In this document: piece after piece, positions 2,770 to 28,428 of the stretch
Numbering within the stretch: position 1 is the first letter of the stretch
How the letters are laid out: each line of letters begins with the position of its first letter
From: a virus
Lineage: Duplodnaviria; Caudoviricetes
Length of the DNA: 56,298 nucleotides
Direction: 5' to 3' (one strand)
Virus record (IMG/VR): IMGVR_UViG_3300002026_000071
Location: 1 to 56,298 of that record
The notes under the pieces: generated by a model
Told to the model about the DNA's origin: nothing
The model's database searches: none
What the model saw: only the letters and a program-made list of their open reading frames with translations
Made by a program: the position numbers and the translations under genes

Positions 2770-3066
2770 ATGCCCACTTACTACCTAGCTCGCTACCAAC
2801 TACCTAACTCTTCTATGTTCTACATGTTTAAGTTTGATATTGACAGCCGTTTAGTCGGCTTCAAAGAAACGAATGACCTTATCAACTTTACTGAAACTTG
2901 GCTACTTACCGCTACTAAATCACTACGTATACCGACTGTTAATTGTCGTAACTACCTAATCCAATGTCCATCAGATCTAGCTAAAGTCCCTGACTTAGTA
3001 GTAACTCAAATTCCTGATTTATCACGTAAGTCTTTAGCTTCCGTCTATCCAGAATACTTCATATAA
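2770..3066 (+). CDS. PE-tag family small protein (ends YPEYFI)
   Basis: AAGGAG RBS; shared C-terminal motif. Confidence 0.8.
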   Translation: MPTYYLARYQLPNSSMFYMFKFDIDSRLVGFKETNDLINFTETWLLTATKSLRIPTVNCRNYLIQCPSDLAKVPDLVVTQIPDLSRKSLASVYPEYFI

Positions 3067-3075
3067 GGACTACTC

Positions 3076-4356
3076 ATGTCAATTAACCGTCATTCGTTCG
3101 ACCAAGCTATTGCTAACATGTACAGTAGCCCTATCTATGCTAATTCCTACCTATTCTATGCTCACTTAATCGGTATGTGCCATGTTCACTTTGACAACGC
3201 CATGCAAGCACCTGCTGCAATCAACTTTACTCATGATCACTACAACCTATACATCAACTTAACTGGCATCGACATCCTCGACGAACAAGGCCAACCAGCT
3301 GTAGACGAGAACGGCAAGCCTATCCACATGCCAGGCTTCGACGACTTACCACTTGAGCAACGACTCGGTATCCTTAAGCACGAGATGCTACACATACTTA
3401 ACGGTCATATCGCCCGTAAAGAGGATCGCGATCACACCTTATTCAACTACGCTACTGACTGCGCCATCAACCAGTTTATTGATCGCCACCATTTACCTGA
3501 CAAATGTATCTTTCCAGACAATCTACTCCCTACTGGTACAGTACCGGAGAAGCTCACTGCCGAACAATACTACGAGCTTATCTACCAACAAGCTAAGAAG
3601 TCTCCTAAGTTTCTAGGCGGTAAAGGCTCTAGCAGCAATAAAGGCAAAGGCGAGTTACTCGATGACCATACTAAATGGGACGAGTCTGTCGGCGATGAGG
3701 AACTACGCAAGGACCTAACTAAAGACATGATCGAGAAAGCAGGCAACGCCACTGCTAAGTCTCGCGGTAACACCCCATCAGCTTTTAGTGACTGGCTCGA
3801 GCTCAACACTATCAAACGCGAAGTAGATTGGCGTCAAGTCCTACGCAATATCGTCGGCAACAAGCGCATCAATACTCGCAGGACTATTCAACGCCAAGAC
3901 CGTCGCTTACCTAACTTCGAATGGATCAAGGGCCGTACTAAAGACCGTCAGTTCGACCTCCTAGTTATAGCCGACGTATCTGGCTCTGTCGACGACGAGG
4001 CCTTCTTGCGCACTATGTCAGAAGTCCAGCAGATTTGTCGCCTTTACAACACACCAGTTAATCTAATCCAGGTAGATACTGAGCCTAGTTCACCAGAGAA
4101 GCTCACTGCACAAACTCGCAAGTTAGAGCGTAAGGCTTGTGGCGGTACATTCTTATCACCTGCCCTACAAATGGCTGCTGAGCACCGTCTCAACTACGAC
4201 GCTATCATTGTTACTACTGACGGCGAGCTATCAGAACGCGATGTCGAAGCTTTCCTTAACACCAACAAGAGGGTCATATGGCTTATCGAAAAAACGGGCA
4301 CAATAATGCCTGCTATGAAGTCTGGGCGAATGATCGCATGCAAGTTGAAGTCGTAG
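3076..4356 (+). CDS. Zincin-like metallopeptidase + vWA domain protein (DUF2201-type; N4 gp25-like)
   Basis: HEMLH...N.A.D..IN metallopeptidase signature; MIDAS DVSGS, GGT, TDG. Confidence 0.9.
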   Translation: MSINRHSFDQAIANMYSSPIYANSYLFYAHLIGMCHVHFDNAMQAPAAINFTHDHYNLYINLTGIDILDEQGQPAVDENGKPIHMPGFDDLPLEQRLGILKHEMLHILNGHIARKEDRDHTLFNYATDCAINQFIDRHHLPDKCIFPDNLLPTGTVPEKLTAEQYYELIYQQAKKSPKFLGGKGSSSNKGKGELLDDHTKWDESVGDEELRKDLTKDMIEKAGNATAKSRGNTPSAFSDWLELNTIKREVDWRQVLRNIVGNKRINTRRTIQRQDRRLPNFEWIKGRTKDRQFDLLVIADVSGSVDDEAFLRTMSEVQQICRLYNTPVNLIQVDTEPSSPEKLTAQTRKLERKACGGTFLSPALQMAAEHRLNYDAIIVTTDGELSERDVEAFLNTNKRVIWLIEKTGTIMPAMKSGRMIACKLKS

Positions 4357-4592
4357 CTCATCCAGCCATTCCACACGAAGACTTGCAGACATTCGTCTCT
4401 GCTCTATCTAGTGGTCATATCACACGCTTACGTCTCGACTATAGCCATCTTCACTACTATAATTGCGCTAGCGACTCTCATCCATGCTCAACCTGTCCAT
4501 TCGATGAGTTATGCTCCCACTACATTAAGCAACCGCAAACTGATCGACTTATTTCAGAAGTTCTTACCTATTTTCCTGAATTAAAGGTCTAA
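4338..4592 (+). CDS. PE-tag family Cys-cluster protein (ends FPELKV)
   Basis: C-x6-C-x2-C-x5-C; start uncertain (4278 or 4338). Confidence 0.7.
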   Translation: MQVEVVAHPAIPHEDLQTFVSALSSGHITRLRLDYSHLHYYNCASDSHPCSTCPFDELCSHYIKQPQTDRLISEVLTYFPELKV

Positions 4593-4594
4593 CT

Positions 4595-4807
4595 ATGGAA
4601 CCGCCTAAGCGAGTACTAGACGCATTCCTACTTGCTGTCTTAGGTAACTATGTAGAGATCTACTATGATCCTGACTTAGGCTATATGTTCGAATGCAGAG
4701 ATACTAATTGTAGTGCCTGCCCTTATTTGCACCACTGTAAAGAAGGCACCTACAATCCCACTATTGTCGAGTACGTACTTGCAAATCACCCTGAGGTATT
4801 ACTATGA
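4595..4807 (+). CDS. PE-tag family Cys-cluster protein (ends HPEVLL)
   Basis: CRDTNCSACPYLHHC; C-terminal motif. Confidence 0.8.
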   Translation: MEPPKRVLDAFLLAVLGNYVEIYYDPDLGYMFECRDTNCSACPYLHHCKEGTYNPTIVEYVLANHPEVLL

Positions 4808-5013
4808 AGTATCGCAGTATTAAGAAAGTCGCTTATGAAGCTATTGTTCAAGGGTTTGCCTATGGGTATGACGACGTACAGGGTATTTCTTGTAATATAG
4901 ATCATTACTGCGACGCCTGTCCAGCCTATAAGTATTGTGGCACTTGTTACGATACGCGATTTAGATTAGCTATTGCTACAATCTTCAAAGACCACTTAGA
5001 ACTAAGGATATAG
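4804..5013 (+). CDS. PE-tag family Cys-cluster protein (variant end HLELRI)
   Basis: CNIDHYCDACPAYKYC; ATGA overlap with upstream gene. Confidence 0.75.
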   Translation: MKYRSIKKVAYEAIVQGFAYGYDDVQGISCNIDHYCDACPAYKYCGTCYDTRFRLAIATIFKDHLELRI

Positions 5014-5015
5014 CG

Positions 5016-5267
5016 ATGACTGTATGCAATGATTATCAATTTCCCCTTTACGTCTATGATCTTGCAGCAGATCCTGACTTCTTTCCAGAGCCGTTCTCTT
5101 ACGTTATTCGCACTGAACATCGCGATAACGCCACTTTCTTACGTACTGCTTGCTATGACATCCCTTGTGAAGTATGCATTTTTACTACTGACTGCAAGAA
5201 AGGCATCAACCGTACTGAAACTCTCGGTGCTCTACTCAAAGAAAAGTTCCCTGAACTACTTATCTAA
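5016..5267 (+). CDS. PE-tag family Cys-cluster protein (ends FPELLI)
   Basis: CYDIPCEVCIFTTDC; AAGGA RBS. Confidence 0.8.
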   Translation: MTVCNDYQFPLYVYDLAADPDFFPEPFSYVIRTEHRDNATFLRTACYDIPCEVCIFTTDCKKGINRTETLGALLKEKFPELLI

Positions 5268-5275
5268 GGACTACT

Positions 5276-5587
5276 ATGCACAACTACGGCTTAACCATCA
5301 ATTCGTATAGCGGCTCTATCCCACGTTTAGTAGTCTCTAGTTCAGCTTCTACTACCCACAAAGCCGACTATTTATCCTCTACTATTGCGCCAGGTGTAAC
5401 CATTCCTTTACTTGAATCGTACATCCAGCCGTACGAACATCAGTACATCGCTGATCTTTACGCCAAGGAACGTGCCATTATTCAACAGCGTCAGCTCTAC
5501 ATGCAAGAGTTACGCCGCCTATTTAAGGCTCGCTGTCAGCCAGTCCTCGATAATCTGCCTCTTACGCATCCAGAGCTACTTATATGA
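5276..5587 (+). CDS. PE-tag family small protein (ends HPELLI)
   Basis: TAAGGA RBS; helical C-terminal half. Confidence 0.8.
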   Translation: MHNYGLTINSYSGSIPRLVVSSSASTTHKADYLSSTIAPGVTIPLLESYIQPYEHQYIADLYAKERAIIQQRQLYMQELRRLFKARCQPVLDNLPLTHPELLI

Positions 5588-5841
5588 TTGACTTTAAATG
5601 CTCAAATCCGGCAGATATTGCCGCTATTAACAGCACACTTAAGTCTACTGCTGTACCATTCAGCGCACACAAGCATGTGCCTGCTCTTTTTTGCTACAGC
5701 TCTGAACATGGCCATTGGTACTATGAAGTACTCAAAGTCCCAGCTCGCTTTCAAGCTTATGTAGACCATCTTATACCTCGCTATGACGCAGCTCCTCATG
5801 CTGTCGACATTTCATTTTACCACCCTGAATTACTAATTTAA
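5584..5841 (+). CDS. PE-tag family small protein (ends HPELLI)
   Basis: ATGA overlap; C-terminal motif. Confidence 0.8.
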   Translation: MIDFKCSNPADIAAINSTLKSTAVPFSAHKHVPALFCYSSEHGHWYYEVLKVPARFQAYVDHLIPRYDAAPHAVDISFYHPELLI

Positions 5842-5853
5842 CTAGGAGATCCT

Positions 5854-7146
5854 ATGACCATCAACGAATCAGTTCACTTCTTAACAGCTTGCGACTTAGC
5901 CAACAAGTCTCCACTTATCCAAGGCGTACATGGTCTAGGTAAATCAGAAATCATTCGCCAATATGCCGCTGAACACAACATGCACTGTGAGACTCTCATC
6001 CTCTCCCTTATGGACGTAGGTGACTTAATCGGTCTTCCACGCACTATCGAAGTTGGAGGCACTCTCACCACCACTTGGGCTAGTCCTGACTGGTTTCAGC
6101 GTGTAGTTAATGCCGCATATCCCACCACTATGTCTAGAGACCATCTCAAGTTCAACGATCCACTATTCGCTGACTTTGCGCTACCTCGTCTCTCTAGTTC
6201 AGTTGAGCGTGCTGAACTTAACGCCCTCTACTGCGAGTACACCGGCCAGTACAACGACCAGCTTTTACTCCTTACACAAAACTTAGTTACTTACACTAAA
6301 GGACGACGTTCAGTTGTATTTTTGGATGAGTTTAACCGCGCACCTGTAGACATCCTCAATGCCAGCTTACAGTTAGTACTCGACAAGCGCCTTCACTCGC
6401 ACATGTTACCTACTGTCAACGGTCTCCCAACATTCGTAGTTGCCGCTATCAACCCATCCGACGCCAACTACACTGTCAACACCTTCGATCCAGCTCTTCT
6501 CGACCGTTTTGTACATGCTGTTGTAGAGCCTGACGCATCAGCCTGGCTTGAAAACTACGCTCGCCCTAAGAACGTAGCTCCTGTCATTCGTGACTTCATA
6601 GCTGAGCACCCAAAGCGTATTCACTACACATCAGCCAATTCAGACATCGGTGCTACTCCACGCTCATGGGCAGCTCTATCTGACCTAGTTGCCAACTTCG
6701 ACAAAGTCCCACCAGAAATCCATTTTCAAGTAATCAAGGGCTGTATTGGCGCAGAGGTAGGCTCTCAATTCTACTCCTACTATAACAACTATGTCCACGT
6801 AGTTAAGATGGAGGATATAGAGAAGCTCATTACTACTCAAGCCAAGAAGAAGAACTCTACCGTCGAAACTATCGGTGCAGCTGTCTCTAAGCTTATCGAG
6901 AAGCAAGAGGCCTTACAAAAGACAGAGCTTGCAGAGAACTTCTACTCTAAGTACATCAAGTCACCTGACGCCGCTACTGCTGCACCACTTATCGCCTTCC
7001 TCTATGGTCTCGACTTAGAGATCCTCAATGGTTTCCTCAAAAACAAGAAGGACAGCGACGTTCAATCATACATGCGTTTAGCTGAATTCGACAAAGCCCT
7101 CAACGACAAAGGCCTCTTCAAGCGAGTTACTACTAAACTTTCATAA
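5854..7146 (+). CDS. MoxR-type AAA+ ATPase (N4 gp24-like)
   Basis: Walker A GVHGLGKS, Walker B VFLDEFNRA, sensor AAINP, DPALLDRF, TPRSW. Confidence 0.92.
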   Translation: MTINESVHFLTACDLANKSPLIQGVHGLGKSEIIRQYAAEHNMHCETLILSLMDVGDLIGLPRTIEVGGTLTTTWASPDWFQRVVNAAYPTTMSRDHLKFNDPLFADFALPRLSSSVERAELNALYCEYTGQYNDQLLLLTQNLVTYTKGRRSVVFLDEFNRAPVDILNASLQLVLDKRLHSHMLPTVNGLPTFVVAAINPSDANYTVNTFDPALLDRFVHAVVEPDASAWLENYARPKNVAPVIRDFIAEHPKRIHYTSANSDIGATPRSWAALSDLVANFDKVPPEIHFQVIKGCIGAEVGSQFYSYYNNYVHVVKMEDIEKLITTQAKKKNSTVETIGAAVSKLIEKQEALQKTELAENFYSKYIKSPDAATAAPLIAFLYGLDLEILNGFLKNKKDSDVQSYMRLAEFDKALNDKGLFKRVTTKLS

Positions 7147-7154: not shown

Positions 7155-7988
7155 ATGTTTATTCCTAGCGCATATCCGTCAAGTGGCCCATCTAACTTCT
7201 GCGCACCACTACAACTAACTAATCCACACGACTTAGTAACCAAATTATTAGGTAATGCTTGTGATTGGTTTATTGCTGGTGGTTGTATGTATGCTGATTA
7301 TACAGACGTCGATGTATTCTTCCCTACTGAAGAGGACTTCATTGTAGCTACTGCTGTAATGTCCAAAGACAGACCACCTCGTTGTACACTCAACGCAGAC
7401 ACATATTCCTTTGACTACCCTGCTCCTGAAGTCCAATTAATCAAGCGTCACTTCGGCACTCCACTACAAATCCTAGCCGATTTTGACCTCAATAAGTCTG
7501 CATATGCCATCGACTCTCATGGCAAGCACTACTACAGTCCTGACTTTACTTTACCCCTTTGCATACGTCCAGCCGGCTTTCGTAACTCAACTATGAGTCG
7601 TTTTTGGAAGTATGCCGTTCGCAAGCGTTGCACAACTACTTCAGACAGCATCAAGCAAATGTACGCAATTGCTTATGCTAGTCTAGACACAGTCCTCGAT
7701 GAGTATTACCAGCACAACAACGTTCCTGTACCATACGACTATCGCGAGTTTCGCACTATTGTCCCATCATACATCGGCTTTACTCCATTCCTCGAGTGGC
7801 TTTCTACTCATCCTTCTACTGAACAGCTCATCATACTATCTAAGATTTTTCAGTATAACGAGCATTTTGTACCACTGGAATCAATGTCATTATCGCAGCA
7901 ATTCTTCTTTGCCACGACTCTACAGCGCTCCTACTACTCTACTATTCCACTACAAATCTACTCTACTATACCGGAGGCCTTCTTATGA
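7155..7988 (+). CDS. Nucleotidyltransferase-fold protein with PE tag (ends IPEAFL)
   Basis: IAGGC...DVDVFF, VQLI...FD pattern of the Pol-beta/CCA-like NTase fold. Confidence 0.7.
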   Translation: MFIPSAYPSSGPSNFCAPLQLTNPHDLVTKLLGNACDWFIAGGCMYADYTDVDVFFPTEEDFIVATAVMSKDRPPRCTLNADTYSFDYPAPEVQLIKRHFGTPLQILADFDLNKSAYAIDSHGKHYYSPDFTLPLCIRPAGFRNSTMSRFWKYAVRKRCTTTSDSIKQMYAIAYASLDTVLDEYYQHNNVPVPYDYREFRTIVPSYIGFTPFLEWLSTHPSTEQLIILSKIFQYNEHFVPLESMSLSQQFFFATTLQRSYYSTIPLQIYSTIPEAFL

Positions 7989-8260
7989 TGCTCGATATTC
8001 TCAGACGACCTATCAAAGTAGGTGACTCAGTAGTAGTACCTGGCTATAATTCAATCCGCCTCGACACTGTCGCAACTATCATTAAGGTCAACCGTCTTAC
8101 TTGCACAGTAGAGCTTTCTGCTCATCGTTGGCGTAGAGAGAACGGCCAATGGATTTCTTACCGTGAGCCTGCTCTAATGCGCCGTCGTCCAACTCAGATT
8201 ATGGTTGCAGATGCACAGTTAGCCGATAACCGTTCTACTTACCCAGAAACACAGTTATGA
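7985..8260 (+). CDS. SH3/KOW-like small protein with PE tag (ends YPETQL)
   Basis: D...R.IKVGD.V pattern; ATGA overlap. Confidence 0.7.
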   Translation: MMLDILRRPIKVGDSVVVPGYNSIRLDTVATIIKVNRLTCTVELSAHRWRRENGQWISYREPALMRRRPTQIMVADAQLADNRSTYPETQL

Positions 8261-8517
8261 TTCATTTACTCCAATTTACACCAACCTCCTACTGTACTTA
8301 CGACGATGTCACTAATAGTTCTGGTGGCAACTACGCCACCGCTGCACATTCCCTCAAAATATTTACTAGATCAAATACGCCAATTACTCGAGTCAATTCA
8401 CTTGAAGACTACATACATACCATCATAGCTGCTAATGGATATACACAACTATTAGCCCATTACACCGCGTCTAACATAGACGATTTTCTATTACTATACC
8501 CTGAATTATTCATCTAA
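8257..8517 (+). CDS. PE-tag family small protein (ends YPELFI)
   Basis: ATGA overlap; C-terminal motif. Confidence 0.8.
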   Translation: MIHLLQFTPTSYCTYDDVTNSSGGNYATAAHSLKIFTRSNTPITRVNSLEDYIHTIIAANGYTQLLAHYTASNIDDFLLLYPELFI

Positions 8518-8525: not shown

Positions 8526-10781
8526 ATGACTATGCTTCAACTAACTAAAGCTGAACTAGATAAATACGACGCATTTAACTTGAAGCTTAACTCTAACATT
8601 CAGCGCGTTACTAATGCTATTCCTTTCCAAACTATCGAGCCTCGTGTCAAGGCTATGATAGCTGTTACTCAACTTACCGTCTTTGCCTCACAGTTTCGCC
8701 GCAATGTACGCCTATGGGACGACACCCTAGTCCCAATCAATACCATCTCATTCGCCATCTTAGGCTCAGGCGCAGGCAAGGACTCATCAGTTAAGGCTGC
8801 TCGCAAATGTTTTGCACCTGGCTACGACTTACTCCTTAACACTCGCAAGTCTATCGAAGTACGTGCTGCTCAAGTCGCTGCTGCTAATGCTGGCGAAGAG
8901 TCCACTCTCGAGTACGAAGTCTACAAGAAGTACATGCGCCCACTTCCACCTATCGACATTATGCCTACTACAGGCCCAGGCCTCATTCAGCATATCAACG
9001 ACGTCGGTGATTTATCCCTCAGCGCCTCATTCGTCTACTCAGGTGAGTTCTCTGACGAACTAGCTTATAACCAAGACATGATGGAGTGCATCAAGATCCT
9101 TTCAGAAGTCTATGATACCGGCGACAAAGAAGTCAAGTATACCAAAGGCACAGAGTTCCGCTCTAAAGCCATTAATGGTCAAGCCGTCTCAGCTCTCATG
9201 GTCGGCTCACCAGGCCATATTCTCTATGACGAAGCTACCAAGAAGAAGTTCCACGTAGCGTTCATGTCCAAATTAGCTCGTCGATCATGGTTCTGCTATT
9301 CTCCAGAGAATATCCCTGAACCTACTTTCGACTCAGTCGACTCTATGCTCGAGTACGAAACCAAGTTAGAGCTCGACGCCTTATCCGCTCGCAATGCTAT
9401 GTCCCAACACATCAAGTCCGTCACTGAGTACGGCTTATCTACTGCCGGCACAGAGATCTCAGTCCCTGAAGAAGTATTCCGCCTATTTAAGACCTACAAA
9501 CGTTACAACTCTGAACTAGCTGATTCCTTTCCTAATCAATCCTCTACCAGTGTCCTTATTCGCCGCCATCTTCAATGGAAGGCCATCAAATTAGCAGGTG
9601 CATTTACCATCTTTGACAAATCCTCCTCTATCACCGCCACTAACTACATAGACGCTATCCGCTTTTGTGAACTACTCTCCAACGATATGGCCTTATTCGA
9701 ATACGACTTATCTAAGTCCGATCACGAACGATTCGCCGATTATATCCGCACACAAGTCCTACTCGATGGTAAAGCTACTATCAGCCTTCACGACTTAAAG
9801 AAGCACAACTTCATCACCGCTGTTTCGCATACCAAGCTTAAAGAACTCATCGCCTTAGCATCCGGCTATGATAAGTCAGGCGTCTACTCACTAGTTAACG
9901 ATGGCACAGCTATTCTCTATGAACCGATCGTAAAAACCGATGTTATCAACGTCTCATATAAGCCCATCAACATATCTCACCTAGAATCGGCCATTATCGC
10001 TAATGACGCCGACGCTATTGCCAACGCTAAGCGTGACTTAGCTACTTCAGCAGTTTACGGCTTCGAATCCGGAGAGACCTCATTCGCCGACTTAGCTCAT
10101 CTCTTATCGTCCTCATACGCCTATTCACCTTTCCGCTTTAAAAATGGCGTACGTGGCAAGGACAACATCCTCGGCGGTACCAAGTGGTTAGTCTTCGACA
10201 TTGATCACTCACACATCAGTGCATCCGAAGCTCATTTCATGCTTTCCGATCTCAATCACCATATTGCCCTATCTACTAACGTCTCCAACGACTATAAGTT
10301 CCGTGTCCTACTTGAGCTAGATTCCGTAGTTGACCTTGACAATCTCACCTGGCGTCATTTCTACCGTCTCGTAGCTGAGCATCTCGCTTTAGAAGTCGAC
10401 TTACTTCCCCAATCACAGATCTTCTTCTCATATGCAGGTCGCCCTCTTATGTCAGTCACCGACGCTACTCCACTCGAGGTACGTCCATTTGTCATGACTG
10501 CCAAAGACCGTGTTACCAACTCACCTACTATCACCCCTCTCACTACTGCACAGAAGAAGCTCCTTCTAGCAGATAGCATGACTACTTTTGCCTTCGCTTT
10601 CAATGCTCCATTTGGCGCAGGTTCTCGCAGTGTTATCCGCGCTATGTACTACCTCAAGGAACTCGGCGGCACTTTAGCCGAAGCCTTATCACTCTACGAC
10701 GACATCCAAGACTACTGGGAGCTTCCTTTCGAGCCCACCCGCTCTGAGGCCATTCGCCAGCAAATCCGCCGTATGTTCTAA
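8526..10781 (+). CDS. Putative DNA primase / primase-helicase (N4 gp43-like)
   Basis: N-terminal P-loop GSGAGKDS; C-terminal AEP-like WLVFDID...HHIALS...KFRVLL. Confidence 0.72.
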   Translation: MTMLQLTKAELDKYDAFNLKLNSNIQRVTNAIPFQTIEPRVKAMIAVTQLTVFASQFRRNVRLWDDTLVPINTISFAILGSGAGKDSSVKAARKCFAPGYDLLLNTRKSIEVRAAQVAAANAGEESTLEYEVYKKYMRPLPPIDIMPTTGPGLIQHINDVGDLSLSASFVYSGEFSDELAYNQDMMECIKILSEVYDTGDKEVKYTKGTEFRSKAINGQAVSALMVGSPGHILYDEATKKKFHVAFMSKLARRSWFCYSPENIPEPTFDSVDSMLEYETKLELDALSARNAMSQHIKSVTEYGLSTAGTEISVPEEVFRLFKTYKRYNSELADSFPNQSSTSVLIRRHLQWKAIKLAGAFTIFDKSSSITATNYIDAIRFCELLSNDMALFEYDLSKSDHERFADYIRTQVLLDGKATISLHDLKKHNFITAVSHTKLKELIALASGYDKSGVYSLVNDGTAILYEPIVKTDVINVSYKPINISHLESAIIANDADAIANAKRDLATSAVYGFESGETSFADLAHLLSSSYAYSPFRFKNGVRGKDNILGGTKWLVFDIDHSHISASEAHFMLSDLNHHIALSTNVSNDYKFRVLLELDSVVDLDNLTWRHFYRLVAEHLALEVDLLPQSQIFFSYAGRPLMSVTDATPLEVRPFVMTAKDRVTNSPTITPLTTAQKKLLLADSMTTFAFAFNAPFGAGSRSVIRAMYYLKELGGTLAEALSLYDDIQDYWELPFEPTRSEAIRQQIRRMF

Positions 10782-10789: not shown

Positions 10790-11041
10790 ATGATTATAGC
10801 TTCTCAACGCATGCATAAACACTCTAATGATGTAGCTATTCTCGTAGCCTGGCGAGAAGCCGTTCGTGGCTATCCTACTACTGCAGCTATTGTTTTTAAT
10901 CTCGCTGGACAGCCTAGTGGTTGTGTTTCCTTAGGGTTTTGCGCTAACTGTCGCTTTCGCGATTTCTGCGGCAAAGAGTCACCGTCTGTAGCACATATGT
11001 TCACTAGTTTATCTAGTACACATCCCGAATTACTTATCTAA
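10790..11041 (+). CDS. PE-tag family Cys-cluster protein (ends HPELLI)
   Basis: CVSLGFCANCRFRDFC; TAAGGA RBS. Confidence 0.8.
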   Translation: MIIASQRMHKHSNDVAILVAWREAVRGYPTTAAIVFNLAGQPSGCVSLGFCANCRFRDFCGKESPSVAHMFTSLSSTHPELLI

Positions 11042-13086: not shown

Positions 13087-13390
13087 AGGTCCTCACTACG
13101 TTACTCCGATGTCTTTCAATTACCGCCATATTAAGTCCTTACTTCCCATCACACTAGAGGACTTAACCCCATTACTAGTTCAACCGCCTACTCCTGATGG
13201 TGTCTACTATGTACATGCTTCAGATCGCCTTTATGCTCTTCATGTTATGCCTGCTGGTCAAATGTTTTATCTAACGTTCGTCTCTCAAATAGAGATAATG
13301 TCGTCTACTACTATACCAAACAAAGAATGCCATGGCGTCTATGTCTGTATAGAAGACATCCTAACAGATTATCCGGAGTATTTCCTATGA
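13031..13390 (+). CDS. Short protein in the rIIB position, with PE tag (ends YPEYFL)
   Basis: GTG start at 13031 behind GGAGG, overlapping the rIIA end; N-terminus loosely resembles the rIIB N-terminal region. Confidence 0.65.
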   Translation: MNVPHILMTNGDILFTLPEGPHYVTPMSFNYRHIKSLLPITLEDLTPLLVQPPTPDGVYYVHASDRLYALHVMPAGQMFYLTFVSQIEIMSSTTIPNKECHGVYVCIEDILTDYPEYFL

Positions 13391-13584
13391 CTATTAACAT
13401 CGAATTAGTTTGTCGCGAGTGCTTAGGACCACTCTATTTCGACTACGATAAGAGTTTGGACCGTTACCGTATTGAACCTTGCGAGTGTACTCTCGAGGAA
13501 ATTCGCCAGCTCAAGTTTGAGCTAGAGTCTGCTATTGCCCTACTCGACGAATGTCGCCCATTATGTCCGGAGCTATTCATATGA
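13387..13584 (+). CDS. PE-tag family Zn-ribbon-like protein (ends CPELFI)
   Basis: CREC...PCEC; ATGA overlap. Confidence 0.75.
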   Translation: MTINIELVCRECLGPLYFDYDKSLDRYRIEPCECTLEEIRQLKFELESAIALLDECRPLCPELFI

Positions 13585-19339: not shown

Positions 19340-19597
19340 ATGTACACACCTTATTCAGTAGCTCTTCCTATGACCACTTACTCACTTTACAGCTGTAAAG
19401 TACCTCACAACTCCCGAATCTGGTACTACCTAGTTCGCGATGACGATACTCCATACAGCACCGCTTCTTCTATCCGCAATGCATTCTCTGTCGCTATTTT
19501 ACGTCGTGAACGTCAGTGCACCTCAATTACTCTCCTAGCCTCCAACTTCTCCACTTACGACCAGCTCCTTCGCGAGTATCCAGAACTTTTCATTTAA
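19340..19597 (+). CDS. PE-tag family small protein (ends YPELFI)
   Basis: YSLYS...YYLV...I.NAF, paralogous to 19876 and 20118. Confidence 0.8.
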   Translation: MYTPYSVALPMTTYSLYSCKVPHNSRIWYYLVRDDDTPYSTASSIRNAFSVAILRRERQCTSITLLASNFSTYDQLLREYPELFI

Positions 19598-19606: not shown

Positions 19607-19873
19607 ATGTCTCATTTTTACGGCACTCTCGACGGCTCAAAGGGCCAGGCTACTCGTTGTGGCACCAAGTCTTCCGGCCTACTAGCTACTGCTAACGGCT
19701 GGTCTATCGGAGGCTCAGTTAAGCTTCACTACGATCCTATTTTAGGTACTGACGTCGTTTTACTGTTTACTACACGCGGTTCAGGCACTAGTGGGCATTT
19801 TGTCGCATCATTTGCGATTATTGATGACAAGCTTACTGTCCTTAATACTGGCTATCCTGAGATCTTTATCTAG
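19607..19873 (+). CDS. Phage hypothetical protein with PE tag (ends YPEIFI)
   Basis: MSHFYGTL.G..G.ATRCG.K.SG N-terminus; TAAGGA RBS. Confidence 0.8.
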   Translation: MSHFYGTLDGSKGQATRCGTKSSGLLATANGWSIGGSVKLHYDPILGTDVVLLFTTRGSGTSGHFVASFAIIDDKLTVLNTGYPEIFI

Positions 19874-19875: not shown

Positions 19876-20115
19876 ATGTACTCTTTATACAGTTTCACTG
19901 TCAGAGGTCTTCTTGTAAATCGTCTCTATTTCCTTGTACACACACGTGGTGATATTCATCATTGCTACTACTCATCTGATACAATCAAAGGCGCTTTTAA
20001 AGCATTACTAAGCCCAATGCACTCACGTGATACAAACTTAATAGAGCCTACTTTCTTAGGCAATTTTGACTCATCTGATGATGTTATCGCTACTGCTCCA
20101 GAACTACTCATCTAA
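19876..20115 (+). CDS. PE-tag family small protein (ends APELLI)
   Basis: Paralog of 19340. Confidence 0.8.
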   Translation: MYSLYSFTVRGLLVNRLYFLVHTRGDIHHCYYSSDTIKGAFKALLSPMHSRDTNLIEPTFLGNFDSSDDVIATAPELLI

Positions 20116-20117: not shown

Positions 20118-20372
20118 ATGCTTATGCTTACAGTTTACATCTCGAATGACTTACCTAAGACGAGTTATTTTATTGTCTGTGCAGACGCTGCAGATGGCTG
20201 TATAACTTCCGTATACCCGACTGTCGGACAAGCTTTTGCAGCATACTACGAAGGGCGCACTATTCGAGCATTATTACAGTCTCTTTACCTTACTGAACAT
20301 AGATTTACATGTCTAGGTTCTTACTCATCATACGAAGATTTTTGCACTCACTGTCCTGAACTACTCATTTAA
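20118..20372 (+). CDS. PE-tag family small protein (ends CPELLI)
   Basis: Paralog of 19340; start may be 20124. Confidence 0.8.
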   Translation: MLMLTVYISNDLPKTSYFIVCADAADGCITSVYPTVGQAFAAYYEGRTIRALLQSLYLTEHRFTCLGSYSSYEDFCTHCPELLI

Positions 20373-21185: not shown

Positions 21186-21536
21186 ATGACCTACAAAGTA
21201 CGTCAAGTTTACGACTTCTTCCGCTACGACATCCATCAAGGTATCGCCTCTCTCATCTATTTCTTCCGCGTAATTTTCCGCTTTCGTCGTTGGGACTACA
21301 CTTTCCAACTCGACGTCATTCAACGCATGCTAGAGAATTGCGATCACCACTGGCGTAAGTCCCACTACCTAGGCAAGGACTTCACTCACTTACGTATTAA
21401 GGTTCTCCTCCGTATGCTCGCTCGCTATCGAAACTATTGGGACTCTAAGGGCCCATCGTCATTCAAGGAAGAGCACCTCTTACTTCAACGCTTCTTACGC
21501 GCCTATATCCGCACTTTACCTCACCTTTGGGATTGA
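21186..21536 (+). CDS. Hypothetical protein
   Basis: 116-aa ORF with R.WD..F...LWD pattern, packed between neighbours. Confidence 0.7.
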   Translation: MTYKVRQVYDFFRYDIHQGIASLIYFFRVIFRFRRWDYTFQLDVIQRMLENCDHHWRKSHYLGKDFTHLRIKVLLRMLARYRNYWDSKGPSSFKEEHLLLQRFLRAYIRTLPHLWD

Positions 21537-22953: not shown

Positions 22954-23613
22954 ATGTATCAACCTATTCAAGTCACGTACCAATCTACGTCCTCACCGTA
23001 CGTAGCTAATCAATGGCTGCGCTCTCTTCCTGACTTAATAGCTTGCGATACAGAGACCGCAGTCAAGTTCACCACTGAACAACTCGACGCATTTCGTCTA
23101 GAATTAGACACTCCTATTTCTAGCTCACGACGCATCCAACTTAACGCAGCACTCGAGGCTACAGCCCTCTCTCACCCATATTACGTAGATATCACCCACG
23201 TACAGATTGCATGGTCTGACCACGAGGCCTACGTGTTTATCCTCGACAACAAGCGTATTCACGACTTAGTTCTCAACTTTCTAGTCTCTACTACTCACAC
23301 ACAGATCTGGCACAACGCTACCTTCGACTTTAAGCACATCTACTACCATACACATAAGTTCCCACCGATCTACGAGGACTCACAGCTCTTAGCTAAGTGC
23401 ATCCTCAACCATGTAGATGTCACTCTCGCTACAGTCGGCCTTAAGGAACTCGCTGGCAAGTGGTACGGTCAATGGGCCATTTCACCAGACAGCTTTACTA
23501 AGGACCAGATGTACTCACCTGATGTCCTTCTTTACGCGGCTACTGACTCTTGTGCCACCTACAAGCTTTGGCACTCTATAAAGGACTACACAAATGGCGT
23601 ACACATTCCTTAA
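22954..23613 (+). CDS. 3'-5' exonuclease domain of family A DNA polymerase (stand-alone gene)
   Basis: ExoI DTET, ExoII WHNATFD, ExoIII YAATD. Confidence 0.88.
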   Translation: MYQPIQVTYQSTSSPYVANQWLRSLPDLIACDTETAVKFTTEQLDAFRLELDTPISSSRRIQLNAALEATALSHPYYVDITHVQIAWSDHEAYVFILDNKRIHDLVLNFLVSTTHTQIWHNATFDFKHIYYHTHKFPPIYEDSQLLAKCILNHVDVTLATVGLKELAGKWYGQWAISPDSFTKDQMYSPDVLLYAATDSCATYKLWHSIKDYTNGVHIP

Positions 23614-23923
23614 CGGTTACTCATTCTCGCTACGCCTCACTCGCAGCTACGCCAAAGTACCAGCCTACTACTTTGAAATAGTAGAGTGGAACACACTGTC
23701 ACCTCGCAGTTGTTGCTCTATCTCACATTTTCACTACAACTTAGGCGAGTCTTGGTTCAACTACTCTCATATAGGTCACCGTCCCCACGAATCTCGTGAT
23801 GGCATTGACGCCTACTTCGAGTTCTATAAACGATGTGATGACTTCCTTCAATCTCTAGGTGTAGATAAGTACCCATCACTCTACGACTGTATCGAGCAGC
23901 TCTATCCGGAGGCTCTATTATGA
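23594..23923 (+). CDS. PE-tag family small protein (ends YPEALL), between the exonuclease and polymerase genes
   Basis: AAGGA RBS; overlaps both neighbours. Confidence 0.8.
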   Translation: MAYTFLNGYSFSLRLTRSYAKVPAYYFEIVEWNTLSPRSCCSISHFHYNLGESWFNYSHIGHRPHESRDGIDAYFEFYKRCDDFLQSLGVDKYPSLYDCIEQLYPEALL

Positions 23924-26591
23924 TCACTTCATCTACTTACTCGCCATGGTCGCTTCTGCCAGCTCCTGAACCGCGTACAGTCTCGCCACCATTAGACTAC
24001 TTCTATGACCACGTAGCTAAGCACTTAATCAAAGATACTGTTCGCATTATGTCCAACGGACTTCCTATCGACTTAGATCGTGTCCAACAGCTCGAGTCAT
24101 CCATTCAAATTACTCTCGACGAAGCTACTGCACGTATCGCTTCTAATCCATACGTCGCTACTTACCAGGCTCAACGGCATGCTCGCCTTATTGCCGCCTA
24201 CAAAGAAGATCGCTTGTCTAAGTGTAAGGACTCTGCAGCTTACTTAGTCCCCTTCAAATCGTCAGATCCGATGCATCGTTCCTACTTTATGCACATCTTT
24301 TCTCAACGATTTGGTGTCCACCCGCCTAACGATCTACTACCAACAGGCGTCCCCAAATGGCCTGCTCTCCTCGTCAAGAAGCTCATACCATCATACCCTC
24401 TACTAGCTAAACTAGCTGATGGCTCCATTTCATCTACGCACTCTATATGCCTTGAAGCTACTCAACTACTAGCTCAACACAAAGCTGATCTCTACAACCG
24501 CAAGTATCTCGACCAGGTAGATACTCCTACTCTCGAGTTACCACCTTTTAATCCTGGCTCAGCTACTCAATTACGCGAGTTATTCGACTTAATGGGCCTC
24601 GAGTCGAGTGCTGTCTCGAAGAAAACTGGCCTTCCATCTTGGCCTCGCGACGAAGTTGAGCGCATCAGCAAAGAATATGTCGAGCCTGACATAGTTGACC
24701 TAGCTAACGCCCTTATCGACTTATCGTACGGAGACATCATTGCTACTACTTTCATACCAGCCTTCTACAAGTACACCATCGATGGTCGACTGTACGGCAA
24801 CTTGAAGCTATTCGGTGCTAAGTCTTTTCGCTTAACATCGAATGAACCTAAATAAATGGGCTTTACATCAGTAATGATGTATCGAAAATACCTTAAACGG
24901 GGAAACTCCTAAGGAATGTTTAAGTAGTATTATGATACTATACAACATACCAATATAAGGACAACCTACCGTGCTAAATAATACTAATGAACAATGGCTT
25001 CCTGTACTTAAATTTGAAGGACTTTACGAAGTTTCTTCACATGGACGTATACGAAATAACCGCAAAGTTATGAAAGTGTATGTGATTAATTCTGGATATG
25101 CTTGCCTTAAACTAGTCAAAGATGGAACGCGTACAAGCGTACTAGTTCACAGATTAGTAGCGCAAGCATTTTGTGCAAAACCTGATGGTGCTGTCGAAGT
25201 TAACCATATCGACGGCAATAAAGCAAATAATGCTGCATCTAACTTAGAGTGGTGCTCATCATCTCAGAACACGCAACATGCACTCGCATTAGGTCTATAC
25301 GATGTAATTTATCATACAAAGAATTCGCTAGGTAAAAAACATTTACCGAATACGTACTCTGACCACCATAACGTCAGCTATGATAAAGCTCGTTGTAAAT
25401 GGGTTGCTGCTATACGTGCTAACGGCAAGAACTTAAGTTCGAAACGTTTTGACACAGAACTTGAAGCAGCACTTCACGTCAACTGGATCATCGATCATTA
25501 CCAGTTAACTGATCGACCTAAAAACACCATTAGTATTTAAAAGCCTAACGACTATTGCGCAAGCAAGTAGGACCAAGTGGTCCGAAATAGGTATACTCCA
25601 CTTGGAGTTTGATATAGTCTGATCTGCACAGTAATATGCAGCTGGTTACGTACCGGGACGGGTTTAACGCACCAGTCTGAACATAATGAATTTACTTAAT
25701 TTGCCTTCAACTAAGTCCATCTACAGCAAGCCTGTTAAACAGTGCTTTACTGCTCCACCAGGCTTTCTTGTTGTAGGTATCGACTTATCAGCACTCGAGG
25801 ACAGAGTCATCGCTTCATTATCTCGTGACACATCAAAGATGGCTGTTTTCACAGACGGCTTAGATGGCCACTGTCTTAACGCCTATGGCTATTTCCCTGA
25901 CGAAGTAGCTCAGCACATGTCTATCACCGGAAACTTAGTCACCGATGTTAAAGAATTCTTCCGCTTAGTTGAGTCTGGCCACAAACCACTCAAAGACATC
26001 CGTCAACGAGGAAAACCCGCCACCTTCGGCATAAGTTACGGCGCTTACCCTCCAAAAGTGTCCAAAACTCTCAAAATCTCGCTCGAAGCTGCTACTAGCA
26101 TCTTTAACAATTACCATCAAGTCCTCTACCCAGGCATCACTAAGTACCGCGAAGACTACGTTCTCCCTACCACCAAAACTAATGGCCGTATTCACTTAGG
26201 TCTCGGCTGTTACCTCAACTCTAATGATCCTGACCGTGATATCCGCTCACTGTCTAACGCCACTTGCCAGTTTTGGTCCATCTTAACTCTCCTCGCTATT
26301 AACAAGCTTCATCAGCTGATCGACTACGAGCATCTGCACAACGACATCTTTGTTACTGCCACTATCTACGACTCAATCTATTTCATTGTACGTGATGATC
26401 CTTCTATCATCCACTGGCTTAACGAAGTAATCGTCCCAATTCTTACTAAAGACTTCATGCTCGACCAAGCTATCCCTAATGAAGCCGCTTGCGAAGTAGG
26501 TACTTCATGGGCCGACCTAGTTCACATACCTAACGGAGCCTCACTTGAAGCCATCACTACTATTGTTGACCAGCTCAAAGGACATCCTTGA
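23920..26591 (+). CDS. polA: Family A DNA polymerase, polymerase domain, spliced: exon1 23920-24849, exon2 25689-26591
   Basis: FNPGS..QL; join RLTSNEP|NLLNLP; motif A DLSALEDR, motif B RQRGKPATFGISYG, motif C TIYDS. Confidence 0.92.
24920..24941 (+). promoter_or_regulatory. Putative promoter TTAAG-N8-TG-a-TACTAT for the intron HNH gene
   Basis: Same spacing as four other copies; upstream of the AAGGA RBS and GTG at 24971. Confidence 0.5.
24971..25540 (+). mobile_element. Intron-encoded NUMOD4-HNH homing endonuclease with AP2-like tail
   Basis: EQW.PV..FEGLYEVSS.GR, VHRLVA.AF, VNHIDGNK.NN...NLEW. Confidence 0.92.
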
Positions 26592-26760
26592 GTATGAGCA
26601 AATTTTTCGTTGGGAATGCACTGCCTGGTACTCCTACTTAGTAGGGGACTACGAGCAGCCCACCTCGCGCAAAGAACGCCGCAAATTACAGCGGCGTTTC
26701 TGTGCAGCCTACTCACGTCTCCACCGCTTTCGTTCCCATTACGTTGAATATTTCATTTAG
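26545..26760 (+). CDS. PE-tag variant ORF (ends YVEYFI); start codon unclear
   Basis: Open frame filling the gap after polA and ending in the tag; no ATG in frame behind the AAAGGA near 26578. Confidence 0.45.
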   Translation: MKPSLLLLTSSKDILEYEQIFRWECTAWYSYLVGDYEQPTSRKERRKLQRRFCAAYSRLHRFRSHYVEYFI

Positions 26761-26768
26761 GAACTGTC

Positions 26769-27098
26769 ATGTCTAAGCACTTCAACTACGACACAACTGC
26801 TATGGCTCATGCTGCACAGACTATTGCCTCACATGCTGCAGCTGGTGTAACTTACGACATTTTGAGTTGTGGGCCTATTACTATCCCAGCTGCTACTGGT
26901 CGTAACTATAGTATGGGAACTTTTAACGACGGTTTACAGGCATCTTTTACAGAGACTCTCACTTATACTTCTGATGGCCACATCGCTACTCGTACTCGTA
27001 CAGAGAATAGTGTATACGCCTGTAATGACCTTTACAACGTTCCACTCGATGTGCTCCAGCAACTTATCCGTACTCACTTACCTGAATACGTACTCTAA
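26769..27098 (+). CDS. PE-tag family small protein (ends LPEYVL)
   Basis: TAGGA RBS; C-terminal motif. Confidence 0.8.
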   Translation: MSKHFNYDTTAMAHAAQTIASHAAAGVTYDILSCGPITIPAATGRNYSMGTFNDGLQASFTETLTYTSDGHIATRTRTENSVYACNDLYNVPLDVLQQLIRTHLPEYVL

Positions 27099-27310
27099 TG
27101 CAACTCTATCACTATAAGGTCATCTGGATACCAGATCATCCTGATTATGACCAGCTCCGCCGTCTTCAGCACTTAATTATAGTTGCTGCTGGCCGTAAGG
27201 ACAATCCGCCTCATCCAGACGCAGTCCTAGTCCTATTCCCTGGCTCTGAACGACTTCTCACAGACTTCGAGCATTTCCTCTACAAAGAACATCCGGAGCT
27301 ACTAGTATGA
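27098..27310 (+). CDS. PE-tag family small protein (ends HPELLV)
   Basis: TAATG overlap; C-terminal motif. Confidence 0.8.
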   Translation: MQLYHYKVIWIPDHPDYDQLRRLQHLIIVAAGRKDNPPHPDAVLVLFPGSERLLTDFEHFLYKEHPELLV

Positions 27311-27609
27311 TCCTTGAATTCCCATTCTTTCCATCCACTTCACCGGCCATCACTTGCAACGATCGCAGCCATTACAGCCTACTCACAACTACGCTCGATT
27401 ACAAAGACATCGCTACTATGCACACTTACATAGATAACTACGCAGCTACTACTGTCTACTGCCTCGTCATTATGCGCGAGGATATGTCCACTATTACTAT
27501 CACTTGTACATCACTTGCAGTCTCGCGCTACTACTTTAACTGCATCCACGCAAATGCACATGTTCGTGAATCCACTATTCGTACCCTCTTTCCGGAGATT
27601 TTCATATGA
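27307..27609 (+). CDS. PE-tag family small protein (ends FPEIFI)
   Basis: ATGA overlap; C-terminal motif. Confidence 0.8.
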   Translation: MILEFPFFPSTSPAITCNDRSHYSLLTTTLDYKDIATMHTYIDNYAATTVYCLVIMREDMSTITITCTSLAVSRYYFNCIHANAHVRESTIRTLFPEIFI

Positions 27610-28169
27610 AGCTACTCAAATACGAGAATGCCAAGCTTTCTCATCAACTAATTTTCAACTTACCTGCTACCCCACAGATATGTGGACGCGTCTGTCCTGG
27701 CTGTTACGCCGCTAAGGCTCAAGTCCGCTTTAAAGCCGTACTTTTATCTCGCGAACGTAATTATCTAGCCTCCCAATTACCCTCCTTTCCATCACGAGTC
27801 ATCGCAGAAATCCTAGTCTGCAAACGCCCACTAGTCGCAGTTCGAGTGCACGAGTCAGGCGAATTCTATTCTCAAGAGTATCTCGACTACTGGACAGAGA
27901 TTGCGACTGCTCTCCCACACATTACATTCTACGCCTTTACTAAGCGCCGTGCACATTTTGACTTTACCACCTTATCTAGTTTACCGAATGTAGTCATCAT
28001 CAACTCCATTCAGCACGGTGCACTCAACTACGGTCCTGCTGCTAAGCTTCTACCATCAGTGCATACCTGCCCTTGTGCGCCAGGTGTACACATCCGCTGT
28101 GGCATCGACTGCACATACTGTATGCAGAAGTCCGCTCAACTTAACGGCGTTCAATTCCTCCAACATTAG
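27606..28169 (+). CDS. GP88-like phage protein (radical-SAM-like Cys motif)
   Basis: N.KL...FNLPA...CxxxCxxCYA, R.H.SGEFYS, FYAFTK, C-terminal C..DC..C. Confidence 0.72.
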   Translation: MKLLKYENAKLSHQLIFNLPATPQICGRVCPGCYAAKAQVRFKAVLLSRERNYLASQLPSFPSRVIAEILVCKRPLVAVRVHESGEFYSQEYLDYWTEIATALPHITFYAFTKRRAHFDFTTLSSLPNVVIINSIQHGALNYGPAAKLLPSVHTCPCAPGVHIRCGIDCTYCMQKSAQLNGVQFLQH

Positions 28170-28176
28170 GTGTACT

Positions 28177-28428
28177 ATGATCCAACTACTTTCAATCACA
28201 GTAGGTACTACTACTCAGTATGCGCTATACGATGCCGCTACTGAGTCGCGTAGTCCTATAGTTTCTGACCTTAAAGGCTTTCGCAATCCGTCTCACATCA
28301 ACCTGTACGAAGACGAAGGTTGGCTCACTAATCTTAGCGTCACTCCTGAAGCTACCGTAGTTACTCTAGCCACTTTTCCTTCCTACTACGAAGTCCTACT
28401 CAACGACCATTCAGAGCTATTCATATAG
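28177..28428 (+). CDS. PE-tag variant small protein (ends HSELFI)
   Basis: ATG at 28177 behind AGGT; LATFPSY..L resembles the 19340 subfamily. Confidence 0.72.
   Translation: MIQLLSITVGTTTQYALYDAATESRSPIVSDLKGFRNPSHINLYEDEGWLTNLSVTPEATVVTLATFPSYYEVLLNDHSELFI

Follow-up and report, generated by a model that had tools for sequence, protein, structure and literature searches.

The sorting systems LPXTG/sortase, PEP-CTERM/exosortase and GlyGly-CTERM/rhombosortase use proteome-wide C-terminal signals together with a cognate processing enzyme. Non-polar C-terminal tails are also classical bacterial degrons, and a free end of the form Phi-x-Phi-COOH (Phi, hydrophobic) is the pattern of class II PDZ ligands. 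The metal-ion-dependent adhesion sites (MIDAS) of VWA domains bind an acidic residue of the client, as seen for Rea1/midasin with the Glu of Rsa4 and Ytm1, for the Rubisco activase CbbQO and for integrin ligands. MoxR/AAA_5 ATPases remodel clients held by such VWA partners (midasin-Rsa4, CbbQO). We analysed the virus record IMGVR_UViG_3300002026_000071, a single contig of 56,298 bases that is referred to as the window. Between positions 2770 and 28428, 29 open reading frames (ORFs) end in a C-terminal tail with the consensus [Y/H/F]-P-E-[L/Y]-[F/L]-[I/L/V]-COOH. A preliminary description had listed these 29 tails, and all of them were found as listed. Glu is at position −4 (the last residue being −1) in 29/29, Pro is at −5 in 25/29, and the last residue is Ile, Leu or Val in 29/29. 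The observation is confirmed and is far wider than the window.

The tail is like the LPXTG and PEP-CTERM types in being a short C-terminal signature on many unrelated proteins that co-occurs with one putative peptidase gene. Unlike in those systems, no transmembrane helix or basic cluster follows the motif and only three residues come after the Glu. The carriers are small, look cytoplasmic and showed no signal peptides, and the candidate enzyme is a soluble VWA-zincin protein with a MoxR ATPase. A PEP-CTERM signal was rejected because only those three residues, and no hydrophobic helix, follow the Glu. Pfam scans of 33 of the window proteins turned up no exosortase and no PDZ domain. The C-terminal pattern of a class II PDZ ligand is itself present (I/L/V last, L/Y two residues before it in 64%, strictly terminal). 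The tail shares with ssrA and other non-polar degrons a free non-polar C-terminus that is movable between proteins. It differs from ssrA (...ALAA-COOH, added via transfer-messenger RNA, tmRNA) in that it is gene-encoded, has an aromatic residue at −6 and keeps Pro-Glu invariant. An ssrA-type degron was rejected on these grounds of encoding and sequence; neither a tmRNA nor a tRNA gene was found in the window. The sliding-clamp motif QL[SD]LF was also rejected, as the sequence logo has no Gln and the spacing of Pro-Glu-Phi-Phi-Ile differs.

Among viral proteins, the poxvirus ankyrin PRANC/F-box-like proteins similarly combine many variable proteins with one constant C-terminal handle. Their handle is a folded domain that leads to a host ubiquitin ligase, a degradation machine, whereas the phage handle is a peptide of 6–14 residues in a prokaryotic virus. 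As in Rea1 and CbbQO, an AAA_5/MoxR ATPase is encoded beside a VWA protein with kept MIDAS residues, and the tag offers an invariant Glu amid hydrophobic residues. In the known cases that residue belongs to a folded domain or a loop, in one or a few clients, whereas the tag is terminal and present on a quarter of the proteome. The phage VWA is also fused to a zincin, and the tag is a putative ligand of it. By Pfam domains and homologue annotation, the window pair is a member of the N4 gp24/gp25 pair of N4-like and jumbo phages. In passages of two reports on such pairs the function is listed as unknown or virion assembly is proposed, and these passages give no client motif (PMC4193335, PMC7824862). 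The tail had not been recognised as a described motif, and we found no description of it in the full-text literature, subscription journals and supplementary files lying outside the search; the words 'C-terminal' and 'motif' are absent from the phiTY18 genome paper. A C-terminal recognition or sorting peptide is a known kind of signal, and the sequence, carriers, scale and viral setting appear new.

The terminal enrichment is large. In a greedy set of 73 non-overlapping window genes, from which some overlapping tagged ORFs are dropped, 22 end in PE..[ILV] against 0.03 expected; expected counts here and below derive from the internal rate of the same five-residue pattern (7 internal occurrences in the window). 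Among ORFs of at least 30 residues, the + strand has 30/228 ends of the form E..[ILV] and 25/228 of the form PE..[ILV], and the − strand has 2/149 and 0/149. By our gene tally, 29/45 genes within 2770–28428 are tagged. Fifteen of the 16 untagged genes there have a family match or a functionally annotated homologue (the SSB solely via its homologue in Alteromonas phage vB_AmaP_AD45-P1, below AD45-P1), and the other is a 116-residue ORF at 21186–21536.

The pattern is also strictly terminal. In five genomes, the number of genes in which no residue follows PE..[ILV] is 22, 51, 77, 16 and 17, and offsets of 1–10 residues occur in only 0, 1, 1, 1 and 0 genes, respectively. All three stop codons occur after tags. 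The free carboxyl end, or the act of termination, therefore belongs to the feature. The motif extends further than first described, as shown by a logo of 219 tags from eight genome sets. Hydrophobic residues occupy −13 (60%) and −10 (86%), and −9 is K/R in 36%. The hook itself has Y/H/F at −6 (78%), L/Y at −3 (64%), F/L at −2 (83%) and Ile at −1 (79%); Pro at −5 and Glu at −4 are fixed by the selection of the tags, and the final I/L/V is 100% by construction. The tail had been placed after a short amphipathic helix. The i/i+3/i+7 hydrophobic pattern in the logo agrees with this, whereas a β-strand precedes the hook in the sole confident AlphaFold model.

The same tail occurs in other phages. 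Tag-rich contigs were located in IMG/VR with two degenerate DNA patterns for the tail, and the genome sets are labelled G001 and so on. Genes ending in PE..[ILV] number 51/177 in G002 (103.5 kb, with terminal repeats, complete), 16/119 in G001, 17/184 in G005, 21/48 in G003 and 13/75 in G004, with 0.02–0.10 expected per genome set. The cultured Vibrio myovirus phiKT1024 (191 kb) has 77/348 tagged genes, and these tagged coding sequences are hypothetical proteins in GenBank. AD45-P1 is a tag-poor relative (3/148 genes), the first 32 kb of the N4-like Pseudomonas phage PEV2 have none (0/58), and Bacillus phage AR9 has 0 tags in the 41 kb examined. The GC content of tag-bearing phages runs from 26% to 46%. 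By size, 44/146 ORFs of 60–80 residues, 80/145 (55%) of 80–100 and 74/204 of 100–150 are tagged, and 0/99 of 400 residues or more.

Selection acts on the peptide and not on a DNA repeat, as the preliminary description held. The four Pro codons and the two Glu codons all occur (CCA 7, CCC 2, CCG 5, CCT 8; GAA 13, GAG 9; 22 tags), the nucleotide information is 3-periodic, and most tags have no start overlap. Over the 29 ends, codon positions 1–2 are rich in information and most third positions carry almost none; the third base of Pro is A9, C3, G6 and T11, about 0.13 bit. A DNA repeat or recombination linker is ruled out by this periodicity. Overlap with the ribosome-binding site of the next gene was also checked. 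Tags with an ATGA-overlap downstream start use GAG in 59/66 and CCG in 44/66, placing GGAG 8 nt before the ATG. Tags without overlap use GAA in 128/151 and CCG in 14/151 (Fisher 4e-26 for Glu, 1e-17 for Pro, against the overlapping tags). The peptide is kept in the 151/217 tags (70%) without start overlap, and the 44 untagged genes with an ATGA overlap have diverse, unrelated ends. The overlap therefore shapes synonymous sites and not the peptide, which answers the objection of ribosome-binding-site overlap foreseen in the preliminary description. For the same two reasons, an artefact of translational coupling, made of the Shine-Dalgarno sequence and start of the next gene, was rejected.

The tagged ORFs of the window are given below. 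Several starts are probably later than that of the longest ORF (ATGA-overlap starts at 13387, 13581 and 15335; an ATG at 20124), and the starts at 12941, 26545 and 28018 are uncertain.

2770–3066, +, 98 residues, ends YPEYFI
4278–4592, +, 104 residues, Cys-cluster body, ends FPELKV
4595–4807, +, 70 residues, Cys-cluster body, ends HPEVLL
4804–5013, +, 69 residues, Cys-cluster body, ends HLELRI, no Pro
5016–5267, +, 83 residues, ends FPELLI
5276–5587, +, 103 residues, ends HPELLI
5584–5841, +, 85 residues, ends HPELLI
7155–7988, +, 277 residues, nucleotidyltransferase-like (motif by eye; N-terminal match to phrog_4400), ends IPEAFL
7985–8260, +, 91 residues, phrog_2251 body (residues 1–72) plus extension, ends YPETQL
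8257–8517, +, 86 residues, ends YPELFI
10790–11041, +, 83 residues, Cys-cluster body, ends HPELLI
12941–13390, +, start uncertain, ends YPEYFL
13387–13584, +, 65 residues from the ATGA-overlap start, ends CPELFI
13581–13799, +, 72 residues from the ATGA-overlap start, Cys-cluster body, ends YPELTI
13808–14104, +, 98 residues, ends FPELII
14931–15338, +, 135 residues, ends YPECFL; tagged homologues in G001, G002 and G003
15335–15739, +, doubtful member, 134 residues, phrog_2164, ends KIELFI, no Pro
15748–16149, +, 133 residues, ends YPEYFI; homologues in G005 and phiKT1024
17150–17398, +, 82 residues, ends HPELLI
19340–19597, +, 85 residues, ends YPELFI
19607–19873, +, 88 residues, phrog_5927 body (residues 1–69) plus extension, ends YPEIFI
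19876–20115, +, 79 residues, ends APELLI
20124–20372, +, 82 residues from the second ATG, ends CPELLI
23594–23923, +, 109 residues, ends YPEALL
26545–26760, +, TTG start uncertain, ends YVEYFI, no Pro; homologue in G002
26769–27098, +, 109 residues, ends LPEYVL
27098–27310, +, 70 residues, ends HPELLV
27307–27609, +, 100 residues, ends FPEIFI
28018–28428, +, start uncertain, probably an internal ATG, ends HSELFI, no Pro

In one of the four tails without Pro, HLELRI ending at 5013, the AGG of the Arg codon sits inside the ribosome-binding site of the next gene. In another, KIELFI ending at 15739, residues 15–131 align with positions 30–129 of the 135 in the phrog_2164 profile, nearly to the end of the protein; the tail may be coincidental, because it falls within this profile. 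The other two are YVEYFI at 26760 and HSELFI at 28428.

The bodies that carry the tail differ, as first proposed. After removal of the last 14 residues, the 29 window proteins show no BLAST link better than E = 0.006, a small CxxC...C subfamily being the exception. The bodies of 230 tagged proteins from eight genome sets fall into 208 BLAST clusters, 193 of them singletons, and profile iteration from two subfamilies added no members. Only four of the 29 window proteins match PHROG families, each a different one, and 25 have no match. Pfam scans of 10 tagged window proteins and 10 larger tagged proteins of other genomes gave weak matches only.

Portability is most direct in two families. In the phrog_5927 and phrog_2251 members of the window, the PHROG profile stops about 19 residues before the C-terminus, so that the tail extends bodies that stop sooner without it. 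By database search and alignment, the closest 10/29 relatives of the phrog_5927 protein carry ...NTxYPE[LI]F[ILV], and the 19 more distant members have the same N-terminal domain and unrelated ends. Judged from this alignment, the tail is a lineage-specific extension in the family. Members of the phrog_2251-like family differ by up to 8 residues in the length of the linker that joins body and hook, and their Pro-Glu is invariant; a word-based homologue search with 7985–8257 returned a single near-identical protein only. We compared 31 pairs of homologous tagged proteins. The last six residues are the best conserved (median identity 0.67), ahead of the body (0.37) and of the 20 residues that precede the hook (0.25), and in 16/31 pairs there are indels directly in front of the hook. 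Such a combination of conserved domain, loose linker and conserved terminal peptide is characteristic of a tethered short linear motif.

The tail was said to be absent from core replication enzymes and from virion genes. For the strict motif the first part stands. The Sak4-like second exon, which belongs to a core protein, nevertheless has a tag-like end of the form D-E-Phi-x-[ILV]:

16878–17147 (approximate bounds), +, Sak4-like second exon, ends ...AVDEFVL

No virion gene is tagged among 9 in the window (35789–56298) or 36 in the virion block of G002. Confinement of the tail to small non-virion, non-enzyme proteins is supported.

The coding sequence of the Sak4-like AAA_24 protein is broken at 16612–16877 (+) by a full-length match to the group I intron family (RF00028, 92.9 bits), the coding parts on either side being 16169–16630 and about 16878–17147. 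Exon 2 is in a different frame (...KRGGFLAEVD...AVDEFVL*) and matches the unsplit 220-residue proteins of G001 and G003. The 153-residue 'Sak4-like' coding sequence of AD45-P1 stops at the same point (...NLVGKG...LAA), and because of this common end point it may be exon 1 only. Core replication proteins of the window bear a second C-terminal signature: the SSB (17437–18108) ends in ...STSLFK, the PD-(D/E)XK nuclease (14113–14928) in ...PTLFKD, the primase (8526–10781) in ...IRRMF and the MoxR ATPase (5854–7146) in ...KGLFKRVTTKLS. Similar ends are found in the G001, G002 and AD45-P1 homologues. This second signature may be a replisome docking motif.

Two window genes form the candidate reader of the tail.

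3076–4356, +, candidate reader, zincin-like peptidase (HEMLH) fused to VWA, intact MIDAS DVSGS...GGT...TDG, N4 gp25-like
5854–7146, +, candidate reader partner, MoxR-type AAA+ ATPase (AAA_5), N4 gp24-like

They belong to the N4 gp24/gp25-like module by the Pfam families PF07728, PF13203 and PF09967 (AAA_5, DUF2201_N with HExxH, DUF2201/VWA), and homologues of the pair are annotated as N4 gp24-like and gp25-like in PEV2. The VWA-zincin and MoxR genes are the only genes common to phiKT1024 and the window, G001, G002 and G005. A VWA-zincin gene is present in all eight large tag-bearing records examined (the window, G001, G002, G005, G008, G009, phiKT1024 and G013). A block of 33 genes around the pair contains 15/17 tags of G005 (p = 3e-11), and the VWA genes of G008 and G013 have tagged neighbours. 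A homologous tagged nucleotidyltransferase-like gene lies directly 3' of MoxR in three lineages (the window, G001, phiKT1024).

In a tree of the VWA-zincin proteins, the tag-bearing phages form one clade (support 94/93) in which podoviruses and myoviruses are mixed. The tag-poor AD45-P1 is on the longest branch of this clade, and the tag-free PEV2 and AR9 are far outside. We also inspected 42 IMG/VR loci that were collected with the VWA alignment. At least one tag lies within 10 kb in 21/30 loci whose VWA has at least 32% identity (82 tags in 529 kb), compared with 0/12 of the loci in which the VWA is more remote (0 tags in 197 kb; p = 5e-5). Across 119 homologues, the HExxH and MIDAS residues (D300/S302/S304/T358/D382) are invariant or nearly so. 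By analogy with the capture systems above, an invariant Glu flanked by hydrophobic residues fits a MIDAS-client logic. A profile search of the PDB with the VWA-zincin alignment gave 0 matches. Complex prediction for the VWA-zincin protein with a 34-residue tail, Mg and Zn scored 0.01 in both runs, which is neither support nor counter-evidence.

The AlphaFold2 model of the 19607–19873 protein is confident and all-beta, with a predicted local distance difference test (pLDDT) score of 90.3. In the model the extension is a strand (75–81) and the hook a helical turn (84–86), the last block having a pLDDT of 83. The prediction is compatible with a packed or docking tail. Foldseek found no match to the model in the PDB at E of 0.001 or better.

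We favour the explanation that the tail is a genome-encoded, portable C-terminal short linear motif, made of a variable, indel-prone linker and then the hexapeptide hook. In this N4-like phage and in several other phage lineages, it is found on the majority of the small accessory (early/middle) proteins. That the tag is portable is well supported. The tail would serve as a handle, its free C-terminus being recognised in trans by one common partner, and recognition in trans by some partner is probable. The partner would most likely be the phage's own MoxR AAA+ ATPase and VWA-zincin peptidase. The invariant Glu would complete the MIDAS metal site of the VWA domain, with the hydrophobic end in a nearby groove, and the tagged proteins would be remodelled, trimmed or turned over, or would serve as adaptors. 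This complete statement, with the phage pair as reader, is put forward tentatively.

Several points weigh against it. The pair is not sufficient for tags, since AD45-P1 has it together with only three tagged genes, and 9/30 clade-like VWA loci have no tag within 10 kb. A passage of PMC4193335 gives gp24/gp25 as core genes of all N4-like phages, and one of PMC7824862 describes the VWA-zincin fusion as typical of one jumbo-phage group and proposes a virion-assembly role. Because the pair is lineage-core, its co-occurrence with tags may reflect two lineages and gene exchange rather than function, and the independent association events may number perhaps 2–4. In phiKT1024 the tags are spread genome-wide, and MoxR is 45 kb from the VWA gene. 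The ordered tail in the AlphaFold2 model is equally compatible with a role in cis. Strings of the type ...HPEYF... are also internal to winged-helix repeat proteins, and therefore the sequence can be an ordinary structural element.

A doubtful though tenable alternative is a reader that acts in trans but belongs to the conserved machinery of the host and not to the phage; the tag would then be a docking peptide, or a degron by which the clearance of early proteins is timed. The host reader could be an AAA+ protease or adaptor (ClpXP, Lon, FtsH, HslUV), a PDZ-type reader, or a replication/transcription hub. The strictly terminal position and the strongly non-polar last three residues point in this direction. 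Tags in phages of such different GC content, and in cultured Vibrio phages, would fit a widely conserved reader. The phage pair also exists without tags, and the window encodes a ClpP-like protein (29226–29828) with homologues in G001–G003. Against a host reader, the tail is unlike ssrA-type ends, the ClpP-like gene has no match in phiKT1024, and no recurrent cellular family with this end is among the bacterial matches listed for one codon pattern, which leaves no lead to mimicry. It is unlikely that the tail is instead a structural cap in cis, a turn and one helical turn on its own body that stabilises tiny fast-evolving domains or shields their C-terminus. Pro-Glu is a common helix-start signature, the tail is ordered in the model, the strings HPEYF and SPELV are internal to the winged-helix repeat proteins, and the hydrophobic residues at −13, −10 and −6 could form a mini-core with L/F/I. 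Such a cap would nevertheless have to suit more than 200 unrelated bodies, and the 20 residues before it are the least conserved, most indel-prone part. Not one residue ever follows the tail, family members without it appear complete, and a hydrophobic free end is odd for stabilisation.

Inheritance of the motif within one ancient, hyper-divergent paralogue family, with no portability, is improbable. The narrow sizes (medians 85–105 residues), the tandem arrays of tagged genes and the small subfamilies (the CxxC...C group and several proteins with a beta-beta-alpha-beta-alpha pattern by eye) speak for common descent. Against it stand the four window members that match four PHROG families, the members of 277–379 residues, the restriction of the phrog_5927 tail to its nearest 10/29 homologues, and the failure of both BLAST and profile iteration to link the bodies. 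Lastly, it is highly improbable that the tail is a by-product or tool of translational coupling, with CCG GAG as Shine-Dalgarno sequence and ATA TGA as the next start, or, in a variant, a nascent peptide that tunes termination and re-initiation. Such coupling would account for the position of GGAG and the strong preference for GAG and CCG in ATGA overlaps, and for the over-use of ATA as last codon (46/77 in phiKT1024). The next gene lies within 15 nt for 73–90% of tagged ORFs against 43–62% of other small ORFs in the window, G002, G001 and phiKT1024, and for 50% against 38% in G005, the comparison sets including spurious ORFs. The non-overlapping majority of tags nevertheless use GAA, which is not Shine-Dalgarno-like; nothing at the RNA level would call for Y/H/F at −6, for F/L at −2 or for the hydrophobic −10; third codon positions vary freely; tags end at any of the three stop codons; and the untagged ATGA-overlap genes have no such peptide.

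An extension of the favoured explanation, in which a phage-encoded reader recognises the handle, is that the tagged proteins form a large, fast-evolving arsenal of adaptors, which we consider rather unlikely. In each protein the variable body would attach to a host target of its own, such as a defence or housekeeping protein, and the constant handle would plug the complex into the MoxR/VWA-zincin machine for unfolding or cleavage. This would be a phage-encoded, modular form of targeted proteolysis, comparable in function to the poxvirus F-box/PRANC proteins and spread by gene exchange between podoviruses and jumbo myoviruses.

Searches outside the tag-rich phages gave little. A scan of bacterial and archaeal genomes with one codon pattern returned no recurrent cellular family among the matches listed (at least 120 loci); these were mostly chance matches in short or non-coding frames, with one phage-like tag-rich contig. 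A search of 1.84 billion representative proteins with a tail profile gave 3 matches at E of 0.001 or better, all of them long tandem winged-helix repeat proteins with internal HPEYF/SPELV strings and not terminal tags. Because single terminal tags cannot reach significance, this search gives no estimate of global abundance. The winged-helix proteins P0152, P0153 and P0154 (387–780 residues) consist of tandem repeats of about 65 residues, each with ...YRxxHPEYF... and ...SPELVxII. On the contigs L165 and L218 (GC 27–29%) of G013, a metagenome-assembled genome labelled Ignavibacteria, stretches of 8 and 4 kb carry 11 and 8 tags, respectively. These tags surround a VWA-zincin gene with 50% identity to that of the window. 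These contigs look like phage contigs binned into a bacterial genome, or a prophage.

Other terminal motifs were seen in relatives. The metagenome relative L002 has three YPE..I-type tails and a second type, PYEFW/TYEYW. The second type is found in the ORFs 496–744 (...LPYEFW), 3245–3508 (...TSTYEYW) and 4386–4646 (...TPYEFW), which lie beside YPE..I ORFs, and it may be a variant or a parallel tag. By eye, and unaligned, the window protein 5276–5587 looks similar to L002 2938–3237, which ends in HPEHFI. In AD45-P1, four consecutive proteins at 58770–60740 (L001 4770–6740) have ...QLRK(E/G)... near the C-terminus (LEQLRKEQLK, QQLRKEQE, VEQLRKEQSSD, IKQLRKGNSDA). They may be local paralogues or carry another terminal motif.

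The phage is N4-like. This assignment follows from the match to the virion RNA polymerase (phrog_2206, E = 2e-136) and the giant genes on the − strand from 35.8 kb, alongside the replication gene set. The first 35.8 kb encode, on the + strand, nucleotide metabolism and replication functions: ThyX, dUTPase, the DUF2201 zincin-VWA protein, the MoxR-type AAA_5 ATPase, primase, an rIIA-like GHKL ATPase, the PD-(D/E)XK nuclease, the Sak4-like AAA_24 protein, an exonuclease, a UvrD-like helicase, a two-ORF DNA polymerase, the ClpP-like protein, PhoH and a class II ribonucleotide reductase. The closest cultured relatives are the Alteromonas phages vB_AmaP_AD45-P1 to -P4 (roughly 100 kb; primase identity 57%). 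No near-identical phage record was found in the collection searched, and a primase-based search for relatives returned none in IMG/VR and one 8-kb metagenome contig. None of the eight listed sequencing runs is recorded as RNA.

In the virion RNA polymerase region (−), adjacent giant ORFs lie at 35789–39784, 39788–42118 and 42118–49428 (1331, 776 and 2436 residues). The first of these matches only the C-terminal third of phrog_2206, and the gp50-like region of AD45-P1 is annotated 'potential frameshift'. The two DNA polymerase ORFs cover positions 9–313 and 314–609 of phrog_23226, and a free-standing NUMOD4 and HNH_3 endonuclease ORF sits between them (window 23920–24855, 24971–25540, 25686–26591); Rfam at gathering score reports no intron there. 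The two strands are unusual in composition: the GC skew is −0.12 to −0.30 in all 2-kb bins of 1–56298, regardless of gene direction, and the + strand of 1–35700 has 27.4% C and 18.0% G. Judged by eye and relative to the K/E-rich proteins of AD45-P1, the small tagged proteins contain much S/T/Y/H/C/L and little K/G.

In the richest phages, about a fifth to two fifths of the genes are small orphans without predicted function, and the shared terminal hexapeptide is the first common testable property for them. The motif would serve as a cheap annotation marker for this gene class in viromes too, and its presence in cultured Vibrio phages (phiKT1024 was examined directly) makes bench tests possible. 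Should the tail prove to be a handle for one reader, a pathway could become assignable to hundreds of orphan phage proteins, the part played by the N4-core gp24/gp25 pair could be explained, and phage and bacterial engineering would gain a small transferable tag.

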